Positions 1-10,802 of a stretch of DNA of 10,802 nt are shown piece after piece. The DNA is taken from IMG/VR virus record IMGVR_UViG_2698536392_000023, positions 1 through 10,802 of that record; one strand, 5' to 3'. The translations under genes and the position numbers were made by a program. Numbering within the stretch: the first letter of the stretch is position 1; the number at the start of each line of letters is the position of its first letter. The stretch is from a virus. Taxonomy: Duplodnaviria > Heunggongvirae > Uroviricota > Caudoviricetes. The notes under the pieces are model-generated. The model ran no database searches. It saw only the letters and a program-made list of their open reading frames with translations, and was not told the DNA's origin.

Positions 1-258
1 CAGAACCACAACAAAGTAATACTCCGGGGCTCTGGTGGCGCTGATTACTGTGCCTTCTCCACCTGTCGGCTTCACCACAACAGGTGTGCTCACATCACCT
101 TCTGCGACAATCGCCTGAATAAGTGCTGCGCCATCATCCGTATACGAAGAAAACGGCCCACCGTATGGTTGCCATCCTTCACGAATTTTTTGCGCAAGTG
201 CATCAGCAAGGTCTGACGGCGATGCCGCCCTGACCACATCGTAGTGTTTAAATGCCAT
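1..258 (-). CDS. 5' part of a CDS whose N-terminus is in the window (86 codons, continues past position 1); DUF1737-like N-terminus as recalled for prophage NanS-p/YjhS-type esterases
   Basis: ATG at 258-256 (minus) preceded by GGAGGA 5 nt upstream; reverse-complement translation MAFKHYDVVRAASPSDLADALAQKIREGWQPYGGPFSSYTDDGAALIQAIVAEGDVSTPVVVKPTGGEGTVISATRAPEYYFVVVL with no stop before the window edge. Absent from the ORF track, which holds only ORFs with a stop in the window; the track ORF 90..356 is a different frame. Family assignment is from memory. Confidence 0.6.
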   Translation of the reverse strand, partial: MAFKHYDVVRAASPSDLADALAQKIREGWQPYGGPFSSYTDDGAALIQAIVAEGDVSTPVVVKPTGGEGTVISATRAPEYYFVVVL

Positions 259-451
259 GAATCCTCCCGGCCGGGATAATATTGTGAGTAAAATGAGGAG
301 CGGGCTGAAATCCGGAAGTTACAGGACAATGGCAGAAGAGAGACAACAGCCCGCAATACGAAAAAGGCCGCGCTATTGCGCAGAGTGATTACTGTCGGAT
401 ATTATTCGCCAGCTGAAATATTACTTCACGTTTTGTTGTTTATTCCTTGCC

Positions 452-480
452 GCCCGCGTCTCCCTGCGCGGGCTTTTTTT
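452..480 (+). terminator. Rho-independent terminator-like hairpin (GCCCGCG-N8-CGCGGGC followed by T7), plus-strand orientation
   Basis: 7-bp GC-rich stem 452-458/467-473, 8-nt loop, T-run 474-480. Confidence 0.5.
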
Positions 481-491
481 GTCCATAAGAA

Positions 492-511
492 AGCCCCTCC
501 GGAGAGGGGCT
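492..511. other. 8-bp perfect inverted repeat AGCCCCTC-CGGA-GAGGGGCT; with the 452-480 hairpin forms a back-to-back hairpin pair
   Basis: Arms 492-499 and 504-511 are exact reverse complements; on the minus strand it is followed by TTCTTAT. Confidence 0.45.
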
Positions 512-707
512 GGAGAGTGGCGCTATGTGCCATTGCATGGTGCCGGGTGCCTCCCGGTGAATTCAGTACCAGCACCTGAATCCGCGATTATCCCATATAC
601 CTACTCGCTGATTGCCCCTCCGCACAGGGGGATTCACCATGCCAGTTTCTTTTAACAAACTCCCCGCAAACCAGACAACAGTCAACCGCCTGAATTGTGA
701 GACATTT

Positions 708-733
708 AAAAAAAAGGCCCGCAAAAGCGAGCC
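708..733 (-). terminator. Rho-independent terminator immediately after the tRNA cluster
   Basis: Minus-strand read GGCTCGC-TTTT-GCGGGCC followed by T8 (plus A-run 708-715); 7-bp stem with one G-U pair. Confidence 0.75.
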
Positions 734-747
734 AGGGAAAATAAGTG

Positions 748-824
748 TGGCGCGTTGTACTGGATTCGAACCAGTGACCGATTGCTTAGAAGGCAATTGC
801 TCTGTCCGGCTGAGCTAACAACGC
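748..824 (-). tRNA. tRNA-Arg, anticodon UCU (reads AGA)
   Basis: Reverse complement GCGTTGTTAGCTCAGCCGGACAGAGCAATTGCCTTCTAAGCAATCGGTCACTGGTTCGAATCCAGTACAACGCGCCA folds as a cloverleaf: perfect 7-bp acceptor stem, GCTC/GAGC D-stem, anticodon loop CTTCTAA, T-loop TTCGAAT, encoded CCA. Confidence 0.85.
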
Positions 825-837
825 ATGATGCATATAA

Positions 838-914
838 TGGACCGCCATCGGGGACTTGAACCCCGCGCAGCCAGCTTCGAAGGCTGGCGCTCTTTCCTGA
901 TGAGCTAATGGCGG
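838..914 (-). tRNA. tRNA-Arg, anticodon UCG (reads CGA)
   Basis: Reverse complement CCGCCATTAGCTCATCAGGAAAGAGCGCCAGCCTTCGAAGCTGGCTGCGCGGGGTTCAAGTCCCCGATGGCGGTCCA: 7-bp acceptor stem CCGCCAT/ATGGCGG, anticodon loop CTTCGAA, T-loop TTCAAGT, encoded CCA. The 5' nucleotide is C, which is unusual. Confidence 0.75.
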
Positions 915-921
915 TATGTGA

Positions 922-997
922 TGGTGGACCTTGCTGGATTTGAACCAGCGGCCTGGCGATTATGAGTCGCTCGCTCTCACCACTGAGCTAAAGGGCC
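922..997 (-). tRNA. ileZ: tRNA with anticodon CAU; body resembles the Ile2 (lysidine, ileX/ileZ-type) class rather than Met
   Basis: Reverse complement GGCCCTTTAGCTCAGTGGTGAGAGCGAGCGACTCATAATCGCCAGGCCGCTGGTTCAAATCCAGCAAGGTCCACCA; anticodon loop CTCATAA, T-loop TTCAAAT, encoded CCA. Acceptor position 3-70 is a C/T mismatch. Ile2 versus Met isotype is from recalled similarity and phage context. Confidence 0.75.
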
Positions 998-1032
998 GGG
1001 AGCAGAATAATAACGGTCCGTAATTAATTCCG

Positions 1033-1060
1033 CAATAAAAAACCCGCTCGGCGGCGGGTT
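1033..1060 (-). terminator. tR'-like intrinsic terminator downstream of the late promoter
   Basis: Minus-strand AACCCGC-CGCCGA-GCGGGTT followed by TTTTATT; sits about 45 nt downstream of the candidate -10. Confidence 0.65.
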
Positions 1061-1107
1061 GTAGAAACTCTTCTAATGTCAGGCATAAAAAGCCCATCGT
1101 TATGACG

Positions 1108-1135
1108 AATTTACCACAGATTCCGGAAAAATCAA
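1108..1135 (-). promoter_or_regulatory. pR'-like late promoter (Q-modified), sigma70-type
   Basis: Minus-strand TTGATT (plus 1130-1135), 16-nt spacer, TAAATT (plus 1108-1113), immediately downstream of the Q-like stop codon at 1141. Confidence 0.55.
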
Positions 1136-1140
1136 CCTTG

Positions 1141-1962
1141 TTACCTAGTTACCTTTTTTAACTGCCGCTCAGCCCATGCTTCTTCAATATCAAACCGGGT
1201 CACCAGCGCATCATAGAATTTCTTAACTGTTTTTTCCCATGACGCGCGTGTTATCTGGTTTGTCACCTCGCATATAGCATTAAATGCCTCCGTTGATGGT
1301 AGTCTTTTATAGCCACGACCACCACAACGCTGGCAGTCTCTGATAACAGGCATACCACGTTTTACCGACTCTTCACGGTAAAGGGCGACACCACGCCCAC
1401 GGCAATCCTTACAGGCGGTGTAAACCTCACCCTTTCCGCCACACTCCGGACAGGCAACTTTTACCACCTCCCTGACTTTTTTCCATTCTTCCCAGTAAGA
1501 CGGATACACACCTTTCGTACACTTTGCCCATACCGGCGGCTTACCATCCGGATACTGGACCTTGTTTGTAAAAACTACGCTTTCAATAAATTTTTCCCCA
1601 TAGCAACAAGGGCACTGCTTTTTACTCGCTGCGCTGCGGGCATAATCCTCAAAAGCGTACGAAGCCATAATGCGCATCACTAACGGTTTTATTTCTGCCG
1701 GAAGTTTTCTCAACGCCGCCACACGATCGCACCGACTGAGTGCATAATCTGCCAGTAATTCTGTTGCCCGCGCCCTGTCATTCATACTGATGCCCATTTT
1801 CCCCAGGAACGCAGAAAACCCCATCTCAGCCCGATTCTGTGTCATGCTCTGCGCGGCCATCACATCAGTGATACTCAGCGCATCTTTTGACGTTGAGGCC
1901 GATGCATCGGTCAGGCAAGGGGATTTTGGGGAGTAGTATTTCGGTAAATCTTCCAGTTTCAT
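1141..1962 (-). CDS. Q-like late antiterminator (273 aa) with three CxxCxGxG zinc-finger motifs
   Basis: Complete ORF; position directly upstream of the pR'/tR'/tRNA block and downstream of rusA; motifs CPECGGKG, CKDCRGRG, CQRCGGRG; start ATG overlaps the rusA stop (ATGA). Confidence 0.65.
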   Translation of the reverse strand: MKLEDLPKYYSPKSPCLTDASASTSKDALSITDVMAAQSMTQNRAEMGFSAFLGKMGISMNDRARATELLADYALSRCDRVAALRKLPAEIKPLVMRIMASYAFEDYARSAASKKQCPCCYGEKFIESVVFTNKVQYPDGKPPVWAKCTKGVYPSYWEEWKKVREVVKVACPECGGKGEVYTACKDCRGRGVALYREESVKRGMPVIRDCQRCGGRGYKRLPSTEAFNAICEVTNQITRASWEKTVKKFYDALVTRFDIEEAWAERQLKKVTR

Positions 1963-2333
1963 TTTTTGACCTGCCCTTCAAGCATTATGGGGTAAATCTT
2001 CACCCCCAGACGTCCACCAGATACTGGCTGAGCACGAACGATATTGATTTCATCAAACTGCTCATCGTCCATTAGCAACCCCGCATGCGTCAGCGCATCC
2101 AGCGGCGCTTTCAGAATATTGTCCAGGTCACGGCGGCGCTTATCCGGTGGCTCGGCAATAATCTTTATCGCCAGCCTTCCGGACAGGTTTAATTTCAGCC
2201 GCTGCTGGCGAACAATAAGTGCCACATCCCGGCGATAACGCTCACCGGCTTTTGATACAAAATATGTGCTGCCACGACGTCGCCAGTAGGTGTTCACCGT
2301 CGGCGGGTAAGGCAAAACAAACTCTATACGCAT
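1959..2333 (-). CDS. rusA: RusA-family Holliday junction resolvase (124 aa)
   Basis: Typical size; N-terminus LPYPPTVNTYWRR and the DKRRRDLDN acidic motif resemble RusA; SD AAGAGG 6 nt upstream of ATG at 2333. Confidence 0.85.
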   Translation of the reverse strand: MRIEFVLPYPPTVNTYWRRRGSTYFVSKAGERYRRDVALIVRQQRLKLNLSGRLAIKIIAEPPDKRRRDLDNILKAPLDALTHAGLLMDDEQFDEINIVRAQPVSGGRLGVKIYPIMLEGQVKK

Positions 2334-2345
2334 CAGTAACCTCTT

Positions 2346-2873
2346 TTACCCGAGCACGCCGGTTGCAAAGGCGTGATCAAGAAAACGAAAAATTAAATCA
2401 ACCTGGGAACCATGCTTTTCTTCGAACGCCAGTGGATCCGCATGAAGCTCGTTGTGATGCTCCCGACACAGCGGTAGCGTGAAAATATCGTGGGATTTTG
2501 TTCCCATTCCGCCCTGACCATGACCAATCAGATGATGAGGATCGTCCGCTGGCTTACCACAACACGCACACGGCTGTGTCTTTACCCAGCGTGTGTATTT
2601 CTCATTTACCCAGCGGCGACGTTTAGGTCGTTTCATGAAGGATTCCGGAGACTCCGGATCAACGGCAATGCTGACCACCGTCTTTTCCTGTGGTGGGTTC
2701 TGTTGCTGGTGGGTGTGAGGTGGTAGCGCAATATTTTTTGTGCGCTGCTTCAGTATGCTGGTGGCGGTCTGTTCTCCCGGTATGATGTCGCTTTCACGGT
2801 ATACGGAGCGGATTTTTTCCGCCGGTAATCCCAGAGAACAACGCGCTACTGCCTCAGGTAGTGCATCCACCAC
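2346..2873 (-). CDS. HNH-like zinc-finger protein, DUF968/YdfU-like C-terminal region (175 aa as drawn; start uncertain, may be the 3' part of a frameshifted longer gene)
   Basis: Motif CACCGKPADDPHHLIGHGQGGMGTKSHDIFTLPLCREHHNELH. ORF begins with GTG and has no recognisable SD; the same frame stays open upstream to 2954; 28-nt overlap with the upstream ORF. Confidence 0.55.
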   Translation of the reverse strand: MVDALPEAVARCSLGLPAEKIRSVYRESDIIPGEQTATSILKQRTKNIALPPHTHQQQNPPQEKTVVSIAVDPESPESFMKRPKRRRWVNEKYTRWVKTQPCACCGKPADDPHHLIGHGQGGMGTKSHDIFTLPLCREHHNELHADPLAFEEKHGSQVDLIFRFLDHAFATGVLG

Positions 2874-3448
2874 CTGATTGCAGGCCGCCCACAGGATAAT
2901 TCGGCCAGCGATAACTCCCTCTCCTGCGTGCCGCTTATTGCGTGACGGATGACGTCAATCATCCAGGCAACCAGATTCTGCTGAGCAAGTTGATCGAGTG
3001 ATTCTGATGTCTGGTCGCGCAGCTGGTTGTCACAGTGCCAGCACAACACCATCGCGCCGGTACCGTAACGGTGAATGACTGTTTCGCTGTGATGATAATC
3101 GCCGTGTGGCCACTGGCAGGATTTCACGTGACGTAATAACCAGTCAGACAGTGCACCAGCGCCGCCAGCTGCACGAATCACCCGCTCATCGCTGAAAAAT
3201 GGCAGCAGTGATTTATCTTCCGCCAGCGGCTGGCGAACAGTAGGAACCGCTCCAGATGGCAGCGCCCGCATGTTTTTCGGTTCCGGCTCCACCAGTATTC
3301 TGCCGTTATGGAATGCTGACATTGATTCACGGCCTGGCTTAACGATAACCAGACCGAGTTCCGGTACCAGAACAGGTCGAAGTAATACCCGCACATTACC
3401 TCCAGACGCGCTGACGGTAGCAGGCATGTGTCCGTGGCAGATGTGCAC
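2846..3448 (-). CDS. HNH-like motif protein (about 200 aa as drawn; start codon uncertain)
   Basis: Motif CQWPHGDYHHSETVIHRYGTGAMVLCWHCDNQL. ORF-track start is a GTG; first ATG is at 3427; overlaps neighbouring ORFs at both ends. Confidence 0.5.
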   Translation of the reverse strand: MHICHGHMPATVSASGGNVRVLLRPVLVPELGLVIVKPGRESMSAFHNGRILVEPEPKNMRALPSGAVPTVRQPLAEDKSLLPFFSDERVIRAAGGAGALSDWLLRHVKSCQWPHGDYHHSETVIHRYGTGAMVLCWHCDNQLRDQTSESLDQLAQQNLVAWMIDVIRHAISGTQERELSLAELSCGRPAIRWWMHYLRQ

Positions 3449-3668
3449 GAACAGGAAGATATACAGAAACGGTCCAGGTCAGACGATCAGCGTTCAGACT
3501 CCGCTCCACACGGACACCGCGACGCAGATACGCCTCTTGAGGCATATCTGCCTCATCGATCGTACAGAACAGATAGTGAAACCAGCCATACTGAGGCGCA
3601 CGAAAACGCCTCCCCTGCTTAATTTCCAGGTCGGCTTCAGAATTGTGGGATTTTATGTGTTGTGTCAT
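3396..3668 (-). CDS. Hypothetical protein, 90 aa
   Basis: ATG at 3668 with GGAGAA SD 6 nt upstream; the C-terminal 18 codons overlap the next ORF in another frame. Confidence 0.5.
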   Translation of the reverse strand: MTQHIKSHNSEADLEIKQGRRFRAPQYGWFHYLFCTIDEADMPQEAYLRRGVRVERSLNADRLTWTVSVYLPVRAHLPRTHACYRQRVWR

Positions 3669-3717
3669 CGGATTCTCCGGTGACAGCAGGTGTCAGTTGT
3701 TCAGGCTGACTGCGCGA

Positions 3718-3746
3718 ATTGTAAGGCAATACGCCGGAATGTACAA
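3718..3746 (-). promoter_or_regulatory. Candidate sigma70 promoter for the downstream accessory operon
   Basis: Minus-strand TTGTAC (plus 3741-3746), 17-nt spacer, TACAAT (plus 3718-3723). Confidence 0.4.
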
Positions 3747-3771
3747 ACAGAAAACCCGTCAGTAAGACGGG
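3745..3771 (-). terminator. Intrinsic terminator of the YgiW-like moron
   Basis: Minus-strand CCCGTC-TTACT-GACGGG followed by TTTTCTGTTT, beginning 19 nt after the stop codon at 3790. Confidence 0.7.
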
Positions 3772-3789
3772 CTTAACAAGCAGGGGCGG

Positions 3790-4134
3790 TTACTTTAATA
3801 ATTTCAGTGCCTTTACATCAACTTCAACACTGCTCAGGTCTTTATCAATTTCACCCTCAATTCTTACTTTGTCTTTCGGAGAAACATTCTGCCCGGCCCA
3901 TACGCTGTCATCGATATCCGTGACAATTGTCCCGCTATTATCACGAAACTCATAACGTTCATCACCCACTTTTTTAACGATGCTCCCTTCAAGGATAACC
4001 CATGCATCATCCTTCAGTTCTTTTGCCTGCGCTACTGTTGAACGCTCTGCTTCAGGCCCTTGGAAACCGCCCTGCTGTGCAAAAACGCCAAAAGACACAC
4101 CGGAAATAAGTGCTGCAATCAATACCTTTTTCAT
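3790..4134 (-). CDS. YgiW/YdeI (BOF, bacterial OB-fold) family secreted protein with signal peptide (114 aa); prophage moron
   Basis: N-terminal signal peptide MKKVLIAALISGVSFGVFA; family-typical motifs QGGFQGP, DDAWV, SGTI, VSPKDKV, DKD..SVE.DVK; SD AGAGGG upstream; own terminator. Confidence 0.8.
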   Translation of the reverse strand: MKKVLIAALISGVSFGVFAQQGGFQGPEAERSTVAQAKELKDDAWVILEGSIVKKVGDERYEFRDNSGTIVTDIDDSVWAGQNVSPKDKVRIEGEIDKDLSSVEVDVKALKLLK

Positions 4135-4253
4135 TCATAGCCCTCTTTCAGAGATGAACATTCAAACAGCATTTTCAGTATGATAAAGCGCGGGTGCGTT
4201 GAGGATGCCTGACACATCAGAGGTGGCGAGGGATTTCTCCCCCGCCAGGTCTC

Positions 4254-4409
4254 TTACTCCTCAGGTTCGTAAGCTGTGAAGACAGCGACCTCCGTCTGGC
4301 CGGTTCGGATTCGTACCTCGCAGAGGTCTTTCCTCGTTACCAGTGCCGTCACTATGACGGTAATACAGATGACGATCAGGGCGATTAACATCGCCTTTTG
4401 CTGCTTCAT
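4254..4409 (-). CDS. hokD: Hok/Gef-family type I toxin (51 aa), closest in my memory to HokD/RelF
   Basis: MKQQKAMLIALIVICITVIVTALVTRKDLCEVRIRTGQTEVAVFTAYEPEE; SD AAGGAG upstream of ATG at 4409. The ORF-track entry 4254..4466 is the same frame extended to an upstream ATG. Confidence 0.85.
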   Translation of the reverse strand: MKQQKAMLIALIVICITVIVTALVTRKDLCEVRIRTGQTEVAVFTAYEPEE

Positions 4410-4422
4410 AGCCTGCTTCTCC

Positions 4423-4451
4423 TTGCCTTTCGGCGCGTAAGAGGCTAACCT
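4423..4451 (+). promoter_or_regulatory. Candidate promoter for a sok-like antisense RNA
   Basis: Plus-strand TTGCCT (4423-4428), 17-nt spacer, TAACCT (4446-4451); predicted transcript runs antisense across the upstream in-frame ATG (4466) and its GAGG SD. Confidence 0.35.
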
Positions 4452-4584
4452 ACATGTGTCTAGCATGAAATTGGCCTCAGATTAATGTTAGGCGTCTTGC
4501 AGGACGCGTAATGTTAACTGGGGCTTTTCTCTGTCTGCCTTACGGTGGCATGCCCGAGGCAGACAGCCTCAAGCACCCGCAGCA

Positions 4585-4612
4585 ATTCTACTTAACTCTC
4601 GCTTTACCGCAA
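4585..4612 (-). promoter_or_regulatory. Candidate promoter of the hok mRNA
   Basis: Minus-strand TTGCGG (plus 4607-4612), 16-nt spacer, TAGAAT (plus 4585-4590); gives a leader of about 170 nt, typical for hok mRNAs. Confidence 0.4.
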
Positions 4613-4624
4613 ACCGTTTTTACC

Positions 4625-4646
4625 CGATATGGGAATTCCCATATCG
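4625..4646. repeat. 22-bp perfect palindrome CGATATGGGAATTCCCATATCG
   Basis: Exact reverse-complement symmetry; lies between the stop of the 34-aa ORF (4655) and the candidate hok -35. Confidence 0.9.
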
Positions 4647-4654
4647 TAATGAAT

Positions 4655-4759
4655 TCAGTTCCCTAGTCGATCCATCAAAAACACAACCAGGCAGTAAACG
4701 CCCACAACAGCAATAACAGCCAGCGCACCTTCCATTGCCAGTGAAATATCATCCGACAT
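4655..4759 (-). CDS. Small hydrophobic protein, 34 aa (MSDDISLAMEGALAVIAVVGVYCLVVFLMDRLGN), predicted single transmembrane helix
   Basis: ATG at 4759 with strong SD AAAGGAGGG 4-5 nt upstream; absent from the ORF track because it is under 60 aa. Confidence 0.5.
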   Translation of the reverse strand: MSDDISLAMEGALAVIAVVGVYCLVVFLMDRLGN

Positions 4760-4794
4760 ATTCCCTCCTTTGGTGTTAATCCCGGCGAACGTTT

Positions 4795-4878
4795 TTACCC
4801 CCACCGACAAATAACATATACTAAAAAATCAATAGCTATAGCAACGCCTGTAATTGCAAAGGCTTCAGGCCAGATCAT
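4795..4878 (-). CDS. Small hydrophobic protein, 27 aa (MIWPEAFAITGVAIAIDFLVYVICRWG)
   Basis: ATG at 4878 overlaps the stop of the DUF551 ORF (ATGA); SD GGAGG 8-12 nt upstream. Confidence 0.45.
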   Translation of the reverse strand: MIWPEAFAITGVAIAIDFLVYVICRWG

Positions 4879-5460
4879 TGGCGCACCTCCTGCGGCGGTT
4901 CTGGTAGCGGCATCCAGTCGGTTACATTGCGGCTCTGTGTTTCGAAAAATTCATCACCATTACGGACTACATCAAAAAACTCACCGTCTCGATATTGCGC
5001 ATAAAGAACGAATGCGCCATCACATAAAATAATTACGTGCTGACCATCATCCGGCATTCGCTCACTACAGCTTATCCAATCATCCAGAGTTACCGGATAG
5101 TTGGTTGACGTTTCCGAGATTTCCCGAAAATTATTGGTTGACGAACCCTTTTTTTTCCCGAAAGTTTCCAGCCTGAAGCATGGCGGCGCTGTCTGGCGGG
5201 GCAGCATATAGCGGCACGTATATTTCCGGTTCCTTATCAGCACCGGGTTGCTCTTCCAGTGAGAATGTCTTTCCGGTAAATCGATTCATATAAAGCACGG
5301 GCTCTGCTTCCAGCGAAGCCTGAGCAACAAGGGCCAGTGCTAAATCCAACTCAATTGCCTCGAGAGAATTTTTGAATGCTGTCTGTTTTACTGCAAATTT
5401 CATCGCCTTTACATTTTCACTAACATGACTGATTAACTGCTCTTTTGTAAAAGTGGTCAT
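4875..5460 (-). pseudogene. DUF551-domain phage protein split into two frames at an A8 (plus-strand T8) tract
   Basis: Frame A 5460..5131 (ATG at 5460, SD AAGGAG) ends ...REKKGFVNQ; frame B 5243..4875 reads ...FGKKKGSS... and carries the DUF551-like C-terminus (DDWISCSERMPDDG...WMPLPEPP). The frames switch at the T8 run 5149-5156. Confidence 0.6.
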
Positions 5461-5516
5461 CTCATTCTCCTTTGATGCGAATGCCAGCGACAATTGAAGC
5501 CTGATAGCTAATTCAC

Positions 5517-5912
5517 TCACAATACCGCCTCCTGAAAATTGCCCTGATAGAACGCCAGTACACGCAGCATAACTTCACTCTTCCGGCACTCGCCACAGAT
5601 TATGTTCTGTTGTCTGTCGTAGCGGCGTATTTCTCCGTCTGGTAACTTTCGAATCAATGTCTGGTCGGTTGTTTTCTCCGCTGCCTTACGCCATACGCGA
5701 TACACCTGTTCTGATGTAAAAACACCGTATTTACCGGGCATGTATAAATCGCCGCAAGCCAGTACATCCACAAGGCAACGTCTGACTGAATGCCAGCCTG
5801 CTCCCGTCGCTCTCTCCAGTTGTGATATCGTCATGCGTTCATTTTTGCGTACCAGCCCGATAATTCGGGCCTTCAGTTCTTCACGCTGTTCGTGTGTAAA
5901 AGGTTTCGCCAT
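5517..5912 (-). CDS. Hypothetical phage protein, 131 aa, possible winged-helix fold
   Basis: ATG at 5912 with GGAGG SD 7 nt upstream; segment TISQLERATGAGWHSVRRCL looks HTH-like. Confidence 0.6.
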   Translation of the reverse strand: MAKPFTHEQREELKARIIGLVRKNERMTISQLERATGAGWHSVRRCLVDVLACGDLYMPGKYGVFTSEQVYRVWRKAAEKTTDQTLIRKLPDGEIRRYDRQQNIICGECRKSEVMLRVLAFYQGNFQEAVL

Positions 5913-5927
5913 AAGCGCCTCCGGCTA

Positions 5928-6653
5928 TCACTTTTCCGACACAATACGACCGGATGAATCGACAATCTGCCGAACAATATCCCAGTGCTTGTTCAGATCC
6001 CGCAGCGCGGCGCAGACTCGCTCCCACTTCTGAACCTGACCTTTTGCTCGGCGCAGCTCGCGGTTAGCCACATGCAGCGATGGTAGAATCAGGTCATCTG
6101 CTTTCGTTTCAGTGAACGATTGCTGCAACTTCACAATGTCCTCCACCGCTTCTGTTTTAATTTCTTCCTGTGCAGCCGTTTCCTGGACTGGTAACGCAAC
6201 ACCTGCTGGCTGAGGAAGGGCTTTACCCTCCGTTTCAGCTACGGATGCAGCTTTCTGCTCTGCCGGTAAATCAACGCCCGGTATGCAGTAACGAAATTTA
6301 CCATCCTGATTCACGCGAATCAGACGCCCTTTGCTGATTGCCATTGCCAGCGATGAATTCGCACGGCGGGAGGTAATTCCGAACATCAATGCCAGCTCAT
6401 CCGCCGTTTGTGGGCCATGATGTTCAATCGCCTCAGTCAGCATTTGCGCTGTCACTTTCGGTACCGGTGACACTGGTTCACTTTCACCAGTCTGAGTCAG
6501 CCACCACATCGACCCCTTGTTATCCGCTTCACCACGGCGCTTCAGTTTCCACAGTTCGTTGACAGCATCTTCGCGGCTGATTCCAAGGCGCGATGCCACT
6601 ACCTGTGAAGAGGCTTTTTTCAGTGCTTTCAGTGCGTCAAATACAGTTTCCAT
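5928..6653 (-). CDS. Phage protein with two tandem winged-helix-like domains and a C-terminal coiled-coil (241 aa), possibly DUF1627-like
   Basis: ATG at 6653 with GGAGGA SD; internal repeat of HTH-like segments ([22 protein letters not shown] and [26 protein letters not shown]). The ORF-track start at 6671 is a TTG. Confidence 0.65.
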
Positions 6654-6674
6654 TAAAACGTCCTCCAACAAAAA

Positions 6675-7421
6675 TTACTTCACAACCCTCTGATTGCTGA
6701 CATTTGGACGCCAGCTATCCCAGTTAAACGTCACCCATCGACCACCGCTCATGGTCATCCGGTCCATAATCCTCTCACCAAGAAGCGTGCTCATTGCGGC
6801 ATGATTCAGGTTTGTTAACATCCCGACACTGCACAGTGATGCTGTCCGGCGATCAATTATCTGGTGTAATACCACCTGCTCGTTTTTCGTCTCCCGCTGA
6901 ACGCCTATTTCATCCAGGACCAGCAAATCAACCCCGCAAAGCTCCTGTAAAAATTTTTCCCCGGATTTGCCGTTGTCGTAGCTGTCATGCAACACGCTCA
7001 TGACATCAGACACGGTGACGATAATCACGCTGCGCCCCTTCGCCATCAGCCGGTTACCCATCGCCGCTGCAAGGTGATTTTTCCCGGTGCCGGTTTTACC
7101 GCTGAACACAAAATTCGTGCACCCGGTCATCAGTTCGTCAGCTATGGATTTGGCCTGGCTCAGCGCGTATTTTTGCCCGTCGTTCTGCACCTGATAATTC
7201 GCAAACGAGCATTTGCTGTGCAGAGGCTGGATGCCCGAACGATTCAGGATTTTTTCCACCCGCAACTGGCGATTCTGGCGGTTAATCTCCTCGCTGCGTT
7301 TTCGTCCTTCAGCAAGTTGCCATTCCCGCCACTCCTCCACCGTCCGGTACGGTGGAACCGCCCCCTGTGGTGCAAGTCTGCGAATACGTTCAAGAACCCC
7401 AACTGCCGCAATGTTTTTCAT
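6675..7421 (-). CDS. DnaC-like replicative helicase loader (AAA+), 248 aa
   Basis: Walker A GKTGTGKNHLAAA, Walker B LLVLDEIG, and colinearity with E. coli DnaC (MKN..., NRSGI.PLH..CSF.NY); SD AGGGGGTGA upstream. Confidence 0.85.
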   Translation of the reverse strand: MKNIAAVGVLERIRRLAPQGAVPPYRTVEEWREWQLAEGRKRSEEINRQNRQLRVEKILNRSGIQPLHSKCSFANYQVQNDGQKYALSQAKSIADELMTGCTNFVFSGKTGTGKNHLAAAMGNRLMAKGRSVIIVTVSDVMSVLHDSYDNGKSGEKFLQELCGVDLLVLDEIGVQRETKNEQVVLHQIIDRRTASLCSVGMLTNLNHAAMSTLLGERIMDRMTMSGGRWVTFNWDSWRPNVSNQRVVK

Positions 7422-7427
7422 GACACG

Positions 7428-8498
7428 TCACCCCCTGAATCCCGGCGGTATTTCAGTGTCCGGTTCAGAAATGTGATTCACGCAACGCTGGTTGTTCGTG
7501 CCGCTTACCGGGAGCAACCAGGGGTTTTCAAAATTCCGGTCCGGCCCAAAAAACGTCGTCGCTCGCTGAACAAATTCCGTTCCCGCTTTCCCGGTCGCCG
7601 CCAGGTATCTCGCGTAACGCCTCACACCATCCAGCATGGTCTCTGGTGGCACCCCCTCGCGCAATCTGGCCTTCCAGGCACTGAATGCGGATTTCTTCGG
7701 GTTTGCTCCGGCACGCAACGGGTACTCCCGCCAGACCTGTTCGAACACATCCGGATAATCCACTCGTCCCACAGACTGCCCGGTGTTTTCCGGGACTACC
7801 CGATCGGCTTCCCGCTGAATGGCGGAATCGGCTTCGGGCTGCTGCAGTTGGTGTGATTGCTCCGGCCTTGCGGTCATCACCTGCTGCACAGCGCCCGAAT
7901 CGGCTTTCAGCGCATACGCTGAATCGGCTTCCGGTGTCGTGCCTACTGGCTGACCAGGATTGACGGTCTGAACATCCCCTGCCTGGTTCGTGGCGTTTTT
8001 TACGCCATGGACCATAGTGTTTTGATCTTCTTGATCTGTATCTTTATCTGTATCTTTATCTGTCGTGACTCGTCGTGACATGTGCGTGACATTTCGTGAC
8101 GCGCCGTGACAATCGCCATTTTGTTCCCGCTTTCTTTCCCTCTCTCGCTGCGCCCTCTTGCGCTCTGCAGGAGATTTTGCGGTTTGCGAAATATTGCCGT
8201 TGTCCTCTTTAAGCACCTGGCGTTTTTCCCATCCAGTGATTAAATCACCATCAAGTACCCGCCCCTGCATCGTCTGCAAAATTGAATCAATTACCTCTTC
8301 TGTCACGTCGAGCGCACTTGCCAAATCTTCTGTCGTGACATCAATGTGACCTCGCGTGACATTTCGTGACGCGCTCACCAGGAGGTGGATATACACTGCC
8401 ATCACTGTTGCAATTGGCTGCCCTGACACCCTGGCAATTGTTCGCCACTTAGGGTCATTTGGCATGTCATGCCATAATCTGAGCCAGGCGTTAGCCAT
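7428..8498 (-). CDS. O-like replication initiator (replisome organiser) carrying internal origin iterons, about 356 aa
   Basis: Sits upstream of the DnaC-like gene; iteron arrays lie inside the coding sequence as in lambda O. Probable start is ATG at 8498 with SD AGAGGTGA; the ORF track starts two codons earlier at a GTG. Confidence 0.7.
   Translation of the reverse strand: MANAWLRLWHDMPNDPKWRTIARVSGQPIATVMAVYIHLLVSASRNVTRGHIDVTTEDLASALDVTEEVIDSILQTMQGRVLDGDLITGWEKRQVLKEDNGNISQTAKSPAERKRAQRERERKREQNGDCHGASRNVTHMSRRVTTDKDTDKDTDQEDQNTMVHGVKNATNQAGDVQTVNPGQPVGTTPEADSAYALKADSGAVQQVMTARPEQSHQLQQPEADSAIQREADRVVPENTGQSVGRVDYPDVFEQVWREYPLRAGANPKKSAFSAWKARLREGVPPETMLDGVRRYARYLAATGKAGTEFVQRATTFFGPDRNFENPWLLPVSGTNNQRCVNHISEPDTEIPPGFRG
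8034..8063. repeat. Tandem 12-bp repeat (ATCTGTATCTTT x2.5) encoding a TDKD repeat in the initiator
   Basis: Exact copies at 8034-8045 and 8046-8057, partial at 8058-8063; moderately AT-rich, adjacent to iteron array A. Confidence 0.85.
8064..8110. repeat. Iteron array A: five CGTGAC repeats at 10/11/10/10-bp spacing (candidate replication origin)
   Basis: CGTGAC at 8064, 8074, 8085, 8095, 8105; helical-turn periodicity. Confidence 0.8.
8334..8374. repeat. Iteron array B: four (C)GTGAC repeats at 10-11 bp spacing; includes a 21-bp exact copy of part of array A
   Basis: Repeats at 8334, 8345, 8355, 8365; GCGTGACATTTCGTGACGCGC occurs at both 8084-8104 and 8354-8374. Confidence 0.8.
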
Positions 8499-8569
8499 AC
8501 TCACCTCTTCTGATACCGAATCTTTTTACTCACGAGTTGCCGGAAGCGATTCGATATGGCTATTATCAC

Positions 8570-8995
8570 TCAATGCACTGCCACAGCATTTCCTGCCGGG
8601 CCACCACGGTTCATCTGATTGAAACCGGCGATTGCCACCGCGACAAAATCATCAGCGTCTCTCACCAGTCGCTCCCGCGTCTCCACCAGCTCCCGAAAAT
8701 AAGCTGAACTGTGGCTGCGCATTCTGGCCACCAGCAAAGGTGGCATTGCCTTTTCGATCGCTGGTAACAACGCCTGAATTTTTTCAACTGCATCAGGGGT
8801 GTCTTTCTCTACCCAGCGGAAAATTTTCTGGGTATTGCGAGCCAGGGCTTCCGGATGGCTGTCGTCATACAGTTCCGGGAACGTCATACCCAACTCAAAA
8901 TAAGCCTGGGTTATTCCAGCTGCTGGAACTTTCTCACCATCAGGATATGCCCAGGCATTCATCGCCATGCGGATGTGCTCATGTTTGATTTTCAT
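8570..8995 (-). CDS. ydaT: YdaT-like protein (cII position; family reported as toxic in Rac prophage), 141 aa
   Basis: Size and position downstream of the Cro-like gene match Rac ydaT; N-terminus MKIKHEHI; SD AGAGG upstream; 17-nt overlap with the ydaS-like gene. Family call is from memory. Confidence 0.55.
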   Translation of the reverse strand: MKIKHEHIRMAMNAWAYPDGEKVPAAGITQAYFELGMTFPELYDDSHPEALARNTQKIFRWVEKDTPDAVEKIQALLPAIEKAMPPLLVARMRSHSSAYFRELVETRERLVRDADDFVAVAIAGFNQMNRGGPAGNAVAVH

Positions 8996-9302
8996 GAATC
9001 ATTTGCCTCTTGATGCTTCGGGTATGATCGTTTTCGTCATTTGGTTGCTTCATCGACATATTCTGCGAATAACATGACGAGCGTCGTAAGTATGTCCAAT
9101 CAACATCAGGACGAAGTTCTTCACACAGGACACCACCTTTTGTTGCTCGTTCAATCGCAGGACATCTCTCAGCAGGCAACTGACGTACACCTTTGATCCA
9201 TTGATTTACGCTTGGAGGAGATACACCTAAAAGCCTAGCCATTGCTGATTGCCCACCGACAACAGCACAAGCTCGTTTGAATGAATAGTTATCTTTTTTC
9301 AT
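8979..9302 (-). CDS. ydaS: YdaS-like Cro-type HTH protein, about 107 aa
   Basis: HTH segment QSAMARLLGVSPPSVNQWIKG; ATG at 9302 with GGAG SD (the ORF track begins at an upstream GTG, 9323); divergent from the repressor across an operator region. Confidence 0.65.
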   Translation of the reverse strand: MKKDNYSFKRACAVVGGQSAMARLLGVSPPSVNQWIKGVRQLPAERCPAIERATKGGVLCEELRPDVDWTYLRRSSCYSQNMSMKQPNDENDHTRSIKRQMIHENQT

Positions 9303-9329
9303 CGAATGAACTCCAAAAAACACACAATA

Positions 9330-9359
9330 ATATTAGGCTTAGCCTAATGTGATTATCAA
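9330..9359 (-). promoter_or_regulatory. PR-like promoter for the ydaS-ydaT-replication operon
   Basis: Minus-strand TTGATA (plus 9354-9359), 18-nt spacer, TAATAT (plus 9330-9335); spacer contains operator O1. Confidence 0.45.
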
Positions 9360-9398
9360 TAGGCTATGCCTAACGCTTCGAGAGTAGGGATTGCCTAA
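9333..9398. promoter_or_regulatory. OR-like operator cluster: three TTAGGC-N3-GCCTAA palindromes spaced 25-26 bp centre to centre
   Basis: O1 TTAGGCTTAGCCTAA 9333-9347 (perfect); O2 ATAGGCTATGCCTAA 9359-9373; O3 TAGGGATTGCCTAA 9385-9398 (one half-site imperfect). Confidence 0.7.
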
Positions 9399-9426
9399 CG
9401 CGATGCGCATAGGAGACTATTAAGCA

Positions 9427-9903
9427 ATGCTTAGTGGTAAAGACTTAGGCCGAGCGATAGAGCAGGCCATTAACAAAAAAATTGCATCAGGAGCCGTCAA
9501 ATCAAAGGCGGAAATCGCACGTCATTTCAAAGTCCAACCACCATCAATCCATGACTGGATTAAGAAAGGTTCGATAAGTAAAGACAAACTTCCAGAACTA
9601 TGGCGTTTCTTTTCTGATGTGGTTGGTCCAGAGCATTGGGGGCTTAACGAATACCCCATACCAACCCCATCCACTTCAGATACAAAAAGTGAACTTTTAG
9701 ACATAAACAGCCTTTATCAAGCCGCCTCTGATGAAAAAAGAGCAATTGTGGCTTTCCTCTTATCTGGAAATGCTACGGAGCCTAGTTGGGTTGATCATGA
9801 CGTTCGCGCCTACATTGCCGCAATGGAAATGAAGGTAGCTAACTATCTGAAAAATCAAGAATCAAAACGGAAAAGCCAGAACATCACCAAGACAGGAACT
9901 TAA
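9427..9903 (+). CDS. racR: RacR-like prophage repressor (cI-position HTH protein), 158 aa
   Basis: Divergent from the Cro-like gene across operators; HTH segment SKAEIARHFKVQPPSIHDWIKKG; AGGAG SD; size matches RacR. Family call is from memory. Confidence 0.65.
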   Translation: MLSGKDLGRAIEQAINKKIASGAVKSKAEIARHFKVQPPSIHDWIKKGSISKDKLPELWRFFSDVVGPEHWGLNEYPIPTPSTSDTKSELLDINSLYQAASDEKRAIVAFLLSGNATEPSWVDHDVRAYIAAMEMKVANYLKNQESKRKSQNITKTGT

Positions 9904-9997
9904 ACTTATATGGTCCGACGGGAAATTCCTAGTTCCCGTTAGTTAACTCCTACTACCTCTCCCACAAACCATCACCTATTAGGTCGCACCCAAACCA

Positions 9998-10036
9998 TTA
10001 GGCATAGCCTACTGACAAGCAATTAGGCATTTCCTA
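9998..10036. promoter_or_regulatory. OL-like operators: two further TTAGGC-N3-(G/T)CCTA palindromes downstream of the repressor gene
   Basis: TTAGGCATAGCCTA 9998-10011 and TTAGGCATTTCCTA 10023-10036; centres 25 bp apart. Confidence 0.6.
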
Positions 10037-10040
10037 TAGT
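10012..10040 (+). promoter_or_regulatory. PL-like sigma70 promoter overlapping the OL operators
   Basis: CTGACA (10012-10017), 17-nt spacer, TATAGT (10035-10040). Confidence 0.5.
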
Positions 10041-10244
10041 TTTCCCATACCAACCCATCCCGTCCCACACAATACAGGGCAATACCTAGAGTTACCCGGC
10101 AGTGGTCAGGGATTAAGTAGCCAGCCCGAGGCGTATGAACATGACGGCGGGAACACTTTGTATAACAGCGCAGCAGGTTTTTAGTTCCGCTACCCCAGCG
10201 TTAAGGGGAAATGAGGTCAGCATGGATACTATCGAGCTCCGATC

Positions 10245-10802
10245 CCTAAAGTAACCAGAGCCAGGCTCACCATGGAAGACTGGAAAAAAATTTACAATGC
10301 AACGCCTGAAAAACACTTTATCCGTAACGCAATGCTTCTTGCGATTGTTACTGGTCAGCGCCGTGATGACATTTGCCATATGCGTTTTTCAGATGTGTGG
10401 AACGAACACCTGCATATTACCCAGGGAAAAACTGGAATGCGTCTGGCGTTACCGCTGACGCTACGCTGTGATGCCATTGGGATATCGCTAAAAGAAGTGA
10501 TTGATGGATGCAGGGACAGAATATTGAGTCCATACCTGATTCATAGTCGGCACCAAAAACAACCAAAACCAATGAGTAAAGACAACCTGAGCGATTACTT
10601 TGCCAAAGCGCGGGAGCTGGCTGGAATAATTCCACCAGCAGGAAAAACTCCGCCAACATTTCATGAACAACGTTCTCTATCAGAACGGCTGTACCGTGCA
10701 CAGGGTATCGATACAAAAACATTACTGGGACATAAAGTCCAGGCAACCACCGATCGTTATAACGATACTCGTGGTCAGGAATGGGTTAAATTGGTTGTTT
10801 GA
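10245..10802 (+). pseudogene. Lambda-type tyrosine integrase, C-terminal catalytic domain only (N-terminal about 175 aa missing)
   Basis: Colinear with the lambda Int C-terminus (TGQRR, HEQRSLSERLY, LLGHK, DRYNDTRGQEW, stop at 10802); in-frame stop at 10212-10214 and no Int-like sequence upstream in any frame. Confidence 0.8.

Follow-up and report, generated by a model that had tools for sequence, protein, structure and literature searches.

In Rac, a prophage that Escherichia coli K-12 carries, the repressor gene racR cannot be deleted unless ydaS and ydaT are gone (PMC5700373), and silencing of racR leads to filamentation and death (PMC5700377; 2026 preprint). A critique and later work treat YdaS and YdaT as analogues of the Cro and CII regulators rather than as toxins (PMC5917428, PMC8630535, PMC9986795), and a second group found only YdaT to be toxic, via the host rcsA promoter (PMC11014345, PMC11879457). 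The toxicity of YdaS was not reproduced by that second laboratory and is disputed between the two (PMC11014345 versus PMC5700373); YdaS promotes excision of Rac, which has been proposed to rescue the cells (PMC11014345). For the YdaT subtype of the CP-933P prophage no toxicity was detected (PMC8630535), and CP-933P YdaT is unable to switch on the rcsA promoter, through which K-12 YdaT is toxic (PMC11879457). Here, we examined an overlapping ydaS-ydaT pair in a stretch of 10,802 nucleotides (nt), the whole of which is called the window below (IMG/VR virus record IMGVR_UViG_2698536392_000023, positions 1 to 10,802). An earlier note on this DNA had pointed to a reported toxicity of the homologous Rac pair on loss of the repressor, which would make the repressor effectively essential; this report is real (PMC5700373; PMC5700377). 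The note had suggested that such toxicity may explain why a decayed element is retained. Very probably the pair supplies the Cro analogue (YdaS) and the CII analogue (YdaT) to the immunity switch of a lambdoid prophage that is defective, has Rac-type immunity and lies between potB and potC in an E. coli strain. Judged by its sequence, the locus is a natural hybrid, in which Rac-type racR, operators and ydaS are joined to a CP-933P-type ydaT at a segment of about 30 nt.

The pair was read from a program-made list of open reading frames together with the sequence, and positions 8400-10000 of the window were matched to the chromosome of E. coli strain 2013C-4830 (GenBank accession number NZ_CP027325.1), which is 100% identical over this region. 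RefSeq gives both coding sequences on NZ_CP027325.1 with the same limits as the open reading frames of the window; a longer ydaS, starting at a GTG at 9323, is possible from the list and was without support. YdaS scored 103.9 bits against Pfam profile PF15943 (YdaS_toxin; cutoff 30, E-value 3.8e-30, residues 9-71) and 35.3 bits against a second profile, P22_Cro (cutoff 30.2, 1e-8). It fell in PHROG 35, transcriptional repressor (6.1e-34), and was also similar to solved Cro proteins. Its identity to K-12 YdaS is 85% over 94 residues (E-value 2e-63) while the C-terminal tails differ, and in a homologue search the tails at the C-terminus were variable, with overall lengths of 59-122 amino acids (aa). 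On this alignment the 107-aa protein is a Rac-type allele, the ortholog of YdaS in K-12 Rac. Its gene is the first of the rightward operon, divergent from racR and directly below the operator-covered promoter.

YdaT scored 39.6 bits against Pfam PF06254 (YdaT_toxin; cutoff 21, 7.5e-10), fell in PHROG 163, CII-like transcriptional activator (7.7e-45), and matched two solved structures over its full length, PDB 3c4r (E-value 4e-89) and 8bt1 (2.2e-79), the latter a tetramer with a POU-like helix-turn-helix (HTH) domain (PMC9986795). The closest solved structure is 3C4R, with about 96% identity over 140 residues, followed by CP-933P YdaT (PDB 8BT1) at 84%; identity to K-12 YdaT (P76064) is 33-35%. 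Homology to 3c4r and 8bt1 predicts a POU-like HTH domain and a C-terminal tetramerisation helix, and the Arg-Trp of the recognition helix is kept, R60 and W61 being invariant in alignment A3. At 33% identity, the protein did not group by sequence closeness with the toxic, rcsA-activating subtype of K-12 Rac, and on these matches the 141-aa protein belongs, within the YdaT family, to the CP-933P/3C4R subtype and is not the K-12 ortholog. The homology to YdaS and YdaT proposed in the earlier note therefore stands at the family level and for YdaS, with its 85% identity to K-12, but not for YdaT as an ortholog of the K-12 protein (33%).

RacR matched the NCBIfam equivalog NF049929 with 246.8 bits (cutoff 200) and is 92% identical to K-12 RacR, with a ratio of nonsynonymous to synonymous substitution rates (dN/dS) of 0.10 against the K-12 gene. 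This equivalog and consensus operators in the divergent intergenic region occur together. The intergenic region between racR and ydaS is 92% identical to the footprinted K-12 region, with all operator sites kept, where the consensus derived from footprints is (T/A)TAGGC-n3-GCCTA(T/A) (PMC9638921). All six matches to the operator pattern in the window lie either within the cluster over the ydaS promoter (9334-9433) or at 9999-10036. The predicted sigma-70-like promoter PydaST, the PR analogue, aligns with the mapped K-12 PydaST, TTGACA-18-TAATAT (PMC11879457), and the RacR-type operators overlap this strong PR-like promoter. The claim that the pair sits under an operator-controlled promoter was thus borne out, in that a promoter-like site and RacR-type operators precede ydaS. 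On the same strand, ydaS and ydaT are followed by the replication genes.

The cognate inverted repeat, (T/A)TGATT-N6-AATCAA, is present at the cro/ydaT junction as ATGATTCATGAAAATCAA. This was the sole match in the window to TTGATT-N6-AATCAA at no more than one mismatch, where 0.04 matches are expected by chance. It is letter for letter the K-12 YdaT-box, known by sequence and DNase footprint (PMC11879457), and is one base off the OM operator consensus of CP-933P (PMC9986795). In K-12, YdaT activates PracR4, a reverse promoter within ydaS (PMC11879457). A putative equivalent was placed in the window by its identity to these elements of K-12. It lies at a distance of 178 nt from the YdaT-box; the distance in K-12 is about 190 nt, and the two agree once a 12-nt indel is counted. 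The positions of the genes and sites are collected in Table 1.

Table 1. Positions in the window of the immunity-region genes, predicted regulatory sites and neighbouring features
Feature	Position	Strand	Description	Basis
ydaS	9302..8979	minus	Cro-analogue HTH regulator, 107 aa; ATG at 9302	RefSeq WP_000711018.1
ydaT	8995..8570	minus	CII-analogue transcription activator, 141 aa, CP-933P/3C4R subtype	profile, structure and sequence matches
racR	9427..9903	plus	CI-analogue repressor, 158 aa	NCBIfam equivalog and K-12 identity
PydaST (predicted)	9359..9330	minus	PR analogue; -35 TTGATA, 18-nt spacer, -10 TAATAT	promoter scan
RacR operator cluster (predicted)	9334-9346, 9360-9372, 9385-9397		OR analogue; TAGGC-n3-GCCTA repeats	pattern search
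Degenerate RacR operator (predicted)	9421-9433		over racR ATG	pattern search
YdaT-box	9002..8985	minus	inverted repeat ATGATTCATGAAAATCAA	spans ydaT start codon
PracR4 equivalent (putative)	-35 9180-9185, -10 9207-9212	plus	pRE analogue inside ydaS; -35 CTGACG, -10 TACGCT	identity to K-12 elements, alignment A2
Module joint	8972..9003	minus	about 30 nt; YdaT-box and ydaT codons 1-8	megablast breakpoints, junction survey
Replisome organiser	8498..7428	minus		PHROG 3729 replication initiation protein, 3e-256; RefSeq
DnaC-like helicase loader	7421..6675	minus		NCBIfam PRK12377, 506 bits; Pfam IstB_IS21; RefSeq
C-terminal integrase fragment	10239-10802	plus	564 nt	comparison with the F8798 prophage

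The 17-nt overlap of the Cro-like gene and the gene in the cII position, described in the earlier note, was confirmed, with 8979-8995 common to both reading frames. Alignment with K-12 showed how it came about. The TGA that ends ydaS in K-12 is CGA in the window (9020..9018), with a 12-nt deletion just upstream. Because CGA stands in place of the K-12 stop codon, the ydaS of the window runs on for 13 codons past it, to a TGA within ydaT that is made by ydaT codons 5-6 (CAT GAG). The YdaT-box and the first eight codons of ydaT together form a joint that is nearly invariant across the sampled loci and common to all immunity and ydaT types, while the cro-like genes upstream of it are unrelated and of at least seven types. 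The junction survey took in loci from E. coli, Shigella and E. albertii and two contigs labelled as metagenome-assembled genomes; the cross-species locus survey comprised nine loci, which served for junction geometry and are too few for statistics. The repressors paired with the surveyed cro types were RacR, LexA-family, PaaR2-like and others. The joint carries TGA at -6, +1 and +14 relative to the ydaT ATG, that is, in all three frames, and the upstream gene ends either by a 4-nt overlap (protein ending ...DS) or by a 17-nt overlap (...IHENQ followed by T or A). At least seven cro-like genes, unrelated to each other, end in one or other overlap, since ydaT has in its conserved 5' end an out-of-frame TGA at +1 and at +14. 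The 17-nt overlap is a recurrent by-product of the conserved joint and is not distinctive of this locus; the 107-aa YdaS with the 17-nt overlap was present in all three other hybrid loci fetched (four of four with the window). The boundary of the module is thereby sharply documented, and it accounts for the recurring 4-nt and 17-nt overlaps.

When the region was compared by megablast with 5,426 complete E. coli genomes, about 3,460 of them matched, and three classes of match were found. The full hybrid was present in 530 genomes (about 10%), in K-12-like loci the match to the window stops at 8972, and in many loci where the cro gene is of another kind the match starts only at about 9000-9003. 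Phages showed the same limits: Evi, Tritos and vB_EcoS-640R1 share ydaT and the replisome organiser up to 9000/9001, and vB_EcoS-683R6 shares racR-ydaS from 8972. The mosaic breakpoints sit on either side of the joint (8972-9003). The hybrid loci have racR and ydaS genes with no more than 0-2 differences, while their ydaT genes differ, with a synonymous divergence (dS) of 0.58-0.77 and dN/dS of 0.11-0.16; in the comparison with every other locus that has this type of ydaT, dN/dS is 0.04-0.16. The low dN/dS shows strong purifying selection on ydaT, which is thus a conserved, functional and often exchanged gene. In the three other hybrid loci (L012-L014), compared with positions 8570-8995 of the window, ydaT agrees at about 97% over its first ~150 nt, and the genes differ at a dS of 0.58-0.77; together with the virtual identity of racR and ydaS, this points to a further recombination point within ydaT. 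A ydaT module was also seen at 246758-247410 of plasmid pE300082_261 (a 262-kb record; locus L017), where the repressor is of the LexA family and the cro-like gene is frameshifted.

A further reading is offered tentatively, and we consider it somewhat doubtful. The ~30-nt segment might be a dedicated exchange joint, which would fit any immunity cassette to the ydaT-replication module with the CII-type feedback kept, and in the hybrid the essentiality of racR would be uncoupled from the toxicity of K-12 YdaT acting through rcsA. If this were true, the hybrid would be a natural test of whether the RacR 'addiction' belongs to the module or to the K-12 allele only.

By analogy with K-12 Rac and CP-933P, binding of RacR would hold the ydaS-ydaT transcript silent. 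When RacR drops, YdaS would act as a Cro-like regulator and tetrameric YdaT would bind the inverted repeat over its own start codon. Bound YdaT would turn on the leftward promoter within ydaS, the pRE analogue, which would re-supply racR transcript and switch the locus back to the repressed state. This wiring is experimentally plausible for the hybrid, since CP-933P YdaT proved as good an activator as Rac YdaT on the Rac promoter that depends on the YdaT-box (PMC11879457).

Several points weigh against this reading of the locus. Each regulatory step is carried over from K-12 Rac and CP-933P. In the pRE-like promoter the -35 is CTGACG where K-12 has TTGACG, and the spacer to the -10 is unusual at 21 nt, which makes the activity of this promoter in the present element uncertain. 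K-12 YdaT binds the racR-ydaS intergenic region, whereas CP-933P YdaT showed no binding at its own equivalent (PMC11879457). Translational coupling of ydaT to ydaS would be a plausible consequence of the overlap. However, the predicted messenger RNA (mRNA) fold around the joint had no extra stability over shuffled sequence (z -0.07); a coupling mechanism is thus structurally unsupported, and mRNA folding at the overlap was rejected as a coupling device.

An antisense RNA resembling OOP, directed against the 3' end of ydaT, was also considered, from a plus-strand promoter-like sequence at 8537-8566 and a terminator-like hairpin at 8727-8744, which occupy the place that OOP has in lambda. It was ruled out, as the counts were at chance and most related loci have a disrupted stem with no compensating change. 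The complement of conserved codons for AIEKAMPPLLVA by itself accounts for the hairpin and the T-run, and Rfam gave no match at this site near the ydaT 3' end.

A second group of RacR-type operators was found at a distance of 100-130 nt downstream of racR and comprises TAGGCATAGCCTA (9999-10011) and TAGGCATTTCCTA (10024-10036), both on the plus strand. They flank a promoter-like sequence, CTGACA-17-TATAGT, at 10012-10040 (plus strand). On its sequence this cluster (9999-10040) looks like an OL/PL analogue, though it now would drive only a 16-nt DUF1391 stub fused to the integrase fragment.

In strain 2013C-4830 the prophage is about 42 kb long and has potC on one side and potB on the other. 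Besides replication genes it has hokD, RusA, a Q-type antiterminator and three tRNAs. Genes for a holin, a lysozyme and a lysis protein are present, as are terminase, head and tail genes, one of the tail genes with an IS3 in it; several pseudogenes and espK are also there. A prophage at the same potC site in O157:H7 F8798 has int and xis intact, and relative to it a clean deletion of about 2.1 kb joins 10238 to 10239. With it went the left-arm genes DUF1391, one hypothetical gene and a fragment of an exonuclease, as well as xis and int over its N-terminal half. Excision is not expected because xis and half of int are gone.

Decay is also seen in the nin-like region, where the DUF968 and DUF551 genes (2346-3448 and 4875-5520, minus strand) are each split into two reading frames and are annotated in RefSeq as frameshifted pseudogenes. 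Downstream of the gene for the Q-type antiterminator (1141-1962), an Rfam match to the small RNA (sRNA) STnc100 (138 bits) and three tRNA genes (Ile, Arg and Arg in RefSeq) were found at 481-671 and 751-997 (minus strand). Stx-like lambdoid prophages typically show this arrangement of antiterminator, sRNA and tRNAs. At 4254-4578 (minus strand) is a type I toxin-antitoxin locus, hok/sok, with a hokD reading frame and a full-length Rfam sok RNA (116.9 bits, gathering score 59); hok/sok is a killer system of the classical kind. The gene espK (L015, NZ_CP027325.1 3197431-3198792), for a type III secretion effector, is at the far end of the prophage beside potB, flanked by IS3. Within the replisome organiser gene there is an iteron-like array of about five tandem units of about 10 nt, GTCGTGACAC, at 8062-8111, with a second cluster at 8333-8370. 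All five exact copies of TCGTGAC in the window fall here, where 1.22 are expected, and one of 200 shuffles reached five. Its layout suggests that the array is probably the prophage replication origin, situated inside an O-like gene as in lambda.

These contents bear on why RacR might be needed and why the prophage is kept. Repressor dependence could arise through in-situ replication and the lysis genes, and retention through espK, the tRNAs or hok/sok. In the fuller form of this explanation, derepression of the rightward operon would lead to in-situ replication and possibly to Q-dependent lysis, and the prophage would be kept for EspK, the tRNAs, Lom and hok/sok and not for ydaS/ydaT. This may be the case, though we hold it to be short of probable. 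The genes for the replisome organiser, with its iteron-like array, and for the DnaC-like loader are directly downstream of ydaT, the Q-type antiterminator is intact, the holin, lysozyme and lysis protein are present and, with the integrase truncated and the excisionase absent, excision is not expected; espK at the far end and the full-length sok match of 116.9 bits beside hokD provide the cargo. However, the deleted left arm would have included any N-type antiterminator, so transcripts may not reach Q, and in K-12 deletion of ydaST alone is enough to make racR deletable (PMC5700373). Several of the prophage genes are pseudogenes, and the function of the origin and the lysis cassette is putative.

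That YdaS and/or YdaT are toxic without RacR, making racR effectively essential and stabilising the decayed prophage, as the earlier note suggested, appears unlikely for this allele. It draws on the K-12 findings, namely that racR could be deleted only after removal of ydaS-ydaT (PMC5700373) and that its silencing causes filamentation and death (PMC5700377; 2026 preprint), and on the 85% identity of the YdaS here to the K-12 protein. The truncated integrase and missing xis would close the escape by excision that K-12 has (PMC11014345), and the left-arm deletion ends 335 nt past racR, which is consistent with racR being kept. Against this, the YdaT is of the CP-933P subtype (84% compared with 33-35% to K-12), reported as non-toxic (PMC8630535) and without rcsA activation (PMC11879457), and the toxicity of YdaS failed to reproduce in a second laboratory (PMC11014345). 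The whole Rac prophage can be deleted harmlessly from K-12 (PMC5700373). As K-12 lacking rac is viable, a pair that is kept silent can exert no selection against losing the entire element, and at most would disfavour deletions that remove racR alone. Other cargo is also able to explain retention, and toxicity as the reason for it is weakly supported here. A genuine type II toxin-antitoxin pair is highly improbable: the database names (YdaS_toxin, YdaT_toxin and the RefSeq product names), the layout of two overlapping genes in an operon and an early computer prediction, as cited in PMC5917428, suggest one, but profiles and solved homologues mark YdaS and YdaT alike as HTH regulators that bind DNA, YdaT sharing about 96% identity with a DNA-binding protein of solved HTH/POU-like structure and YdaS having a Cro-type HTH fold. 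In the lambdoid immunity region the pair takes the cro/cII place, with the repressor gene on one side and the replication genes on the other, and experiments did not find toxin-antitoxin behaviour (PMC5700373, PMC8630535), nor did Christensen-Dalsgaard 2010 according to its citation in PMC5917428.

The Cro/CII-type reading of the pair means that the regulatory role carries over to the hybrid and the toxicity does not, because a YdaT of the CP-933P subtype is present. For the same reason, namely that this subtype is reported non-toxic, the 'toxin' labels of RefSeq and Pfam and the essentiality of racR in K-12 are not automatically transferable to this locus. The practical value is small: a common natural hybrid is available for a clean test in the debate between toxins and Cro/CII regulators.

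Compared with K-12 Rac (PMC5700373, PMC9638921, PMC11014345, PMC11879457), the window has a closely similar RacR (92%), intergenic region (92%) and YdaS (85%), an identical YdaT-box over the ydaT ATG and the same gene order, with replication genes after ydaT. It differs in its YdaT (33%) and in a ydaS that lacks the K-12 stop and has a 12-nt deletion, so that the two genes overlap by 17 nt where K-12 Rac has a 22-nt gap. The -35 elements in K-12 are TTGACA (PydaST) and TTGACG (PracR4), in the window TTGATA and CTGACG. Rac is at ttcA in K-12, whereas the window prophage is at potB/potC and is without the left arm (kilR, recET, xis and half of int).

The likeness to CP-933P, with its paaR2-ydaS-ydaT region in O157:H7 (PMC8630535, PMC9986795; PDB 8bt1), is in the YdaT (84%, with seven differences in the 96-residue DNA-binding domain), in the operator at the ydaS/ydaT junction, one base from TTGATT-N6-AATCAA, and in the shared logic of a leftward promoter activated by YdaT. 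CP-933P has the repressor PaaR2, accompanied by the paaA2-parE2 toxin-antitoxin genes, and neither these nor its Cro-like gene bear any relation to RacR or the Rac YdaS. At a locus from another strain (L022), taken to represent the CP-933P junction as its YdaT is 100% identical to the published CP-933P sequence, ydaS and ydaT overlap by 4 nt rather than the 17 nt in the window. PDB 3C4R, about 96% identical to the YdaT of the window, is an uncharacterised protein of an E. coli O6 prophage from structural genomics. The layout is also that of lambda cI-cro-cII, with a divergent repressor, operators over PR, cro and then a tetrameric activator of a leftward repressor promoter (PMC5917428, PMC9986795, PMC11879457). 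There, however, sequence similarity is not detectable, YdaT reads an inverted repeat where CII reads a direct repeat, and the YdaT-box is some 180-190 bp from the promoter that YdaT activates. The switch mechanism is of the known Rac/CP-933P Cro-CII type, and as such is already described biology.

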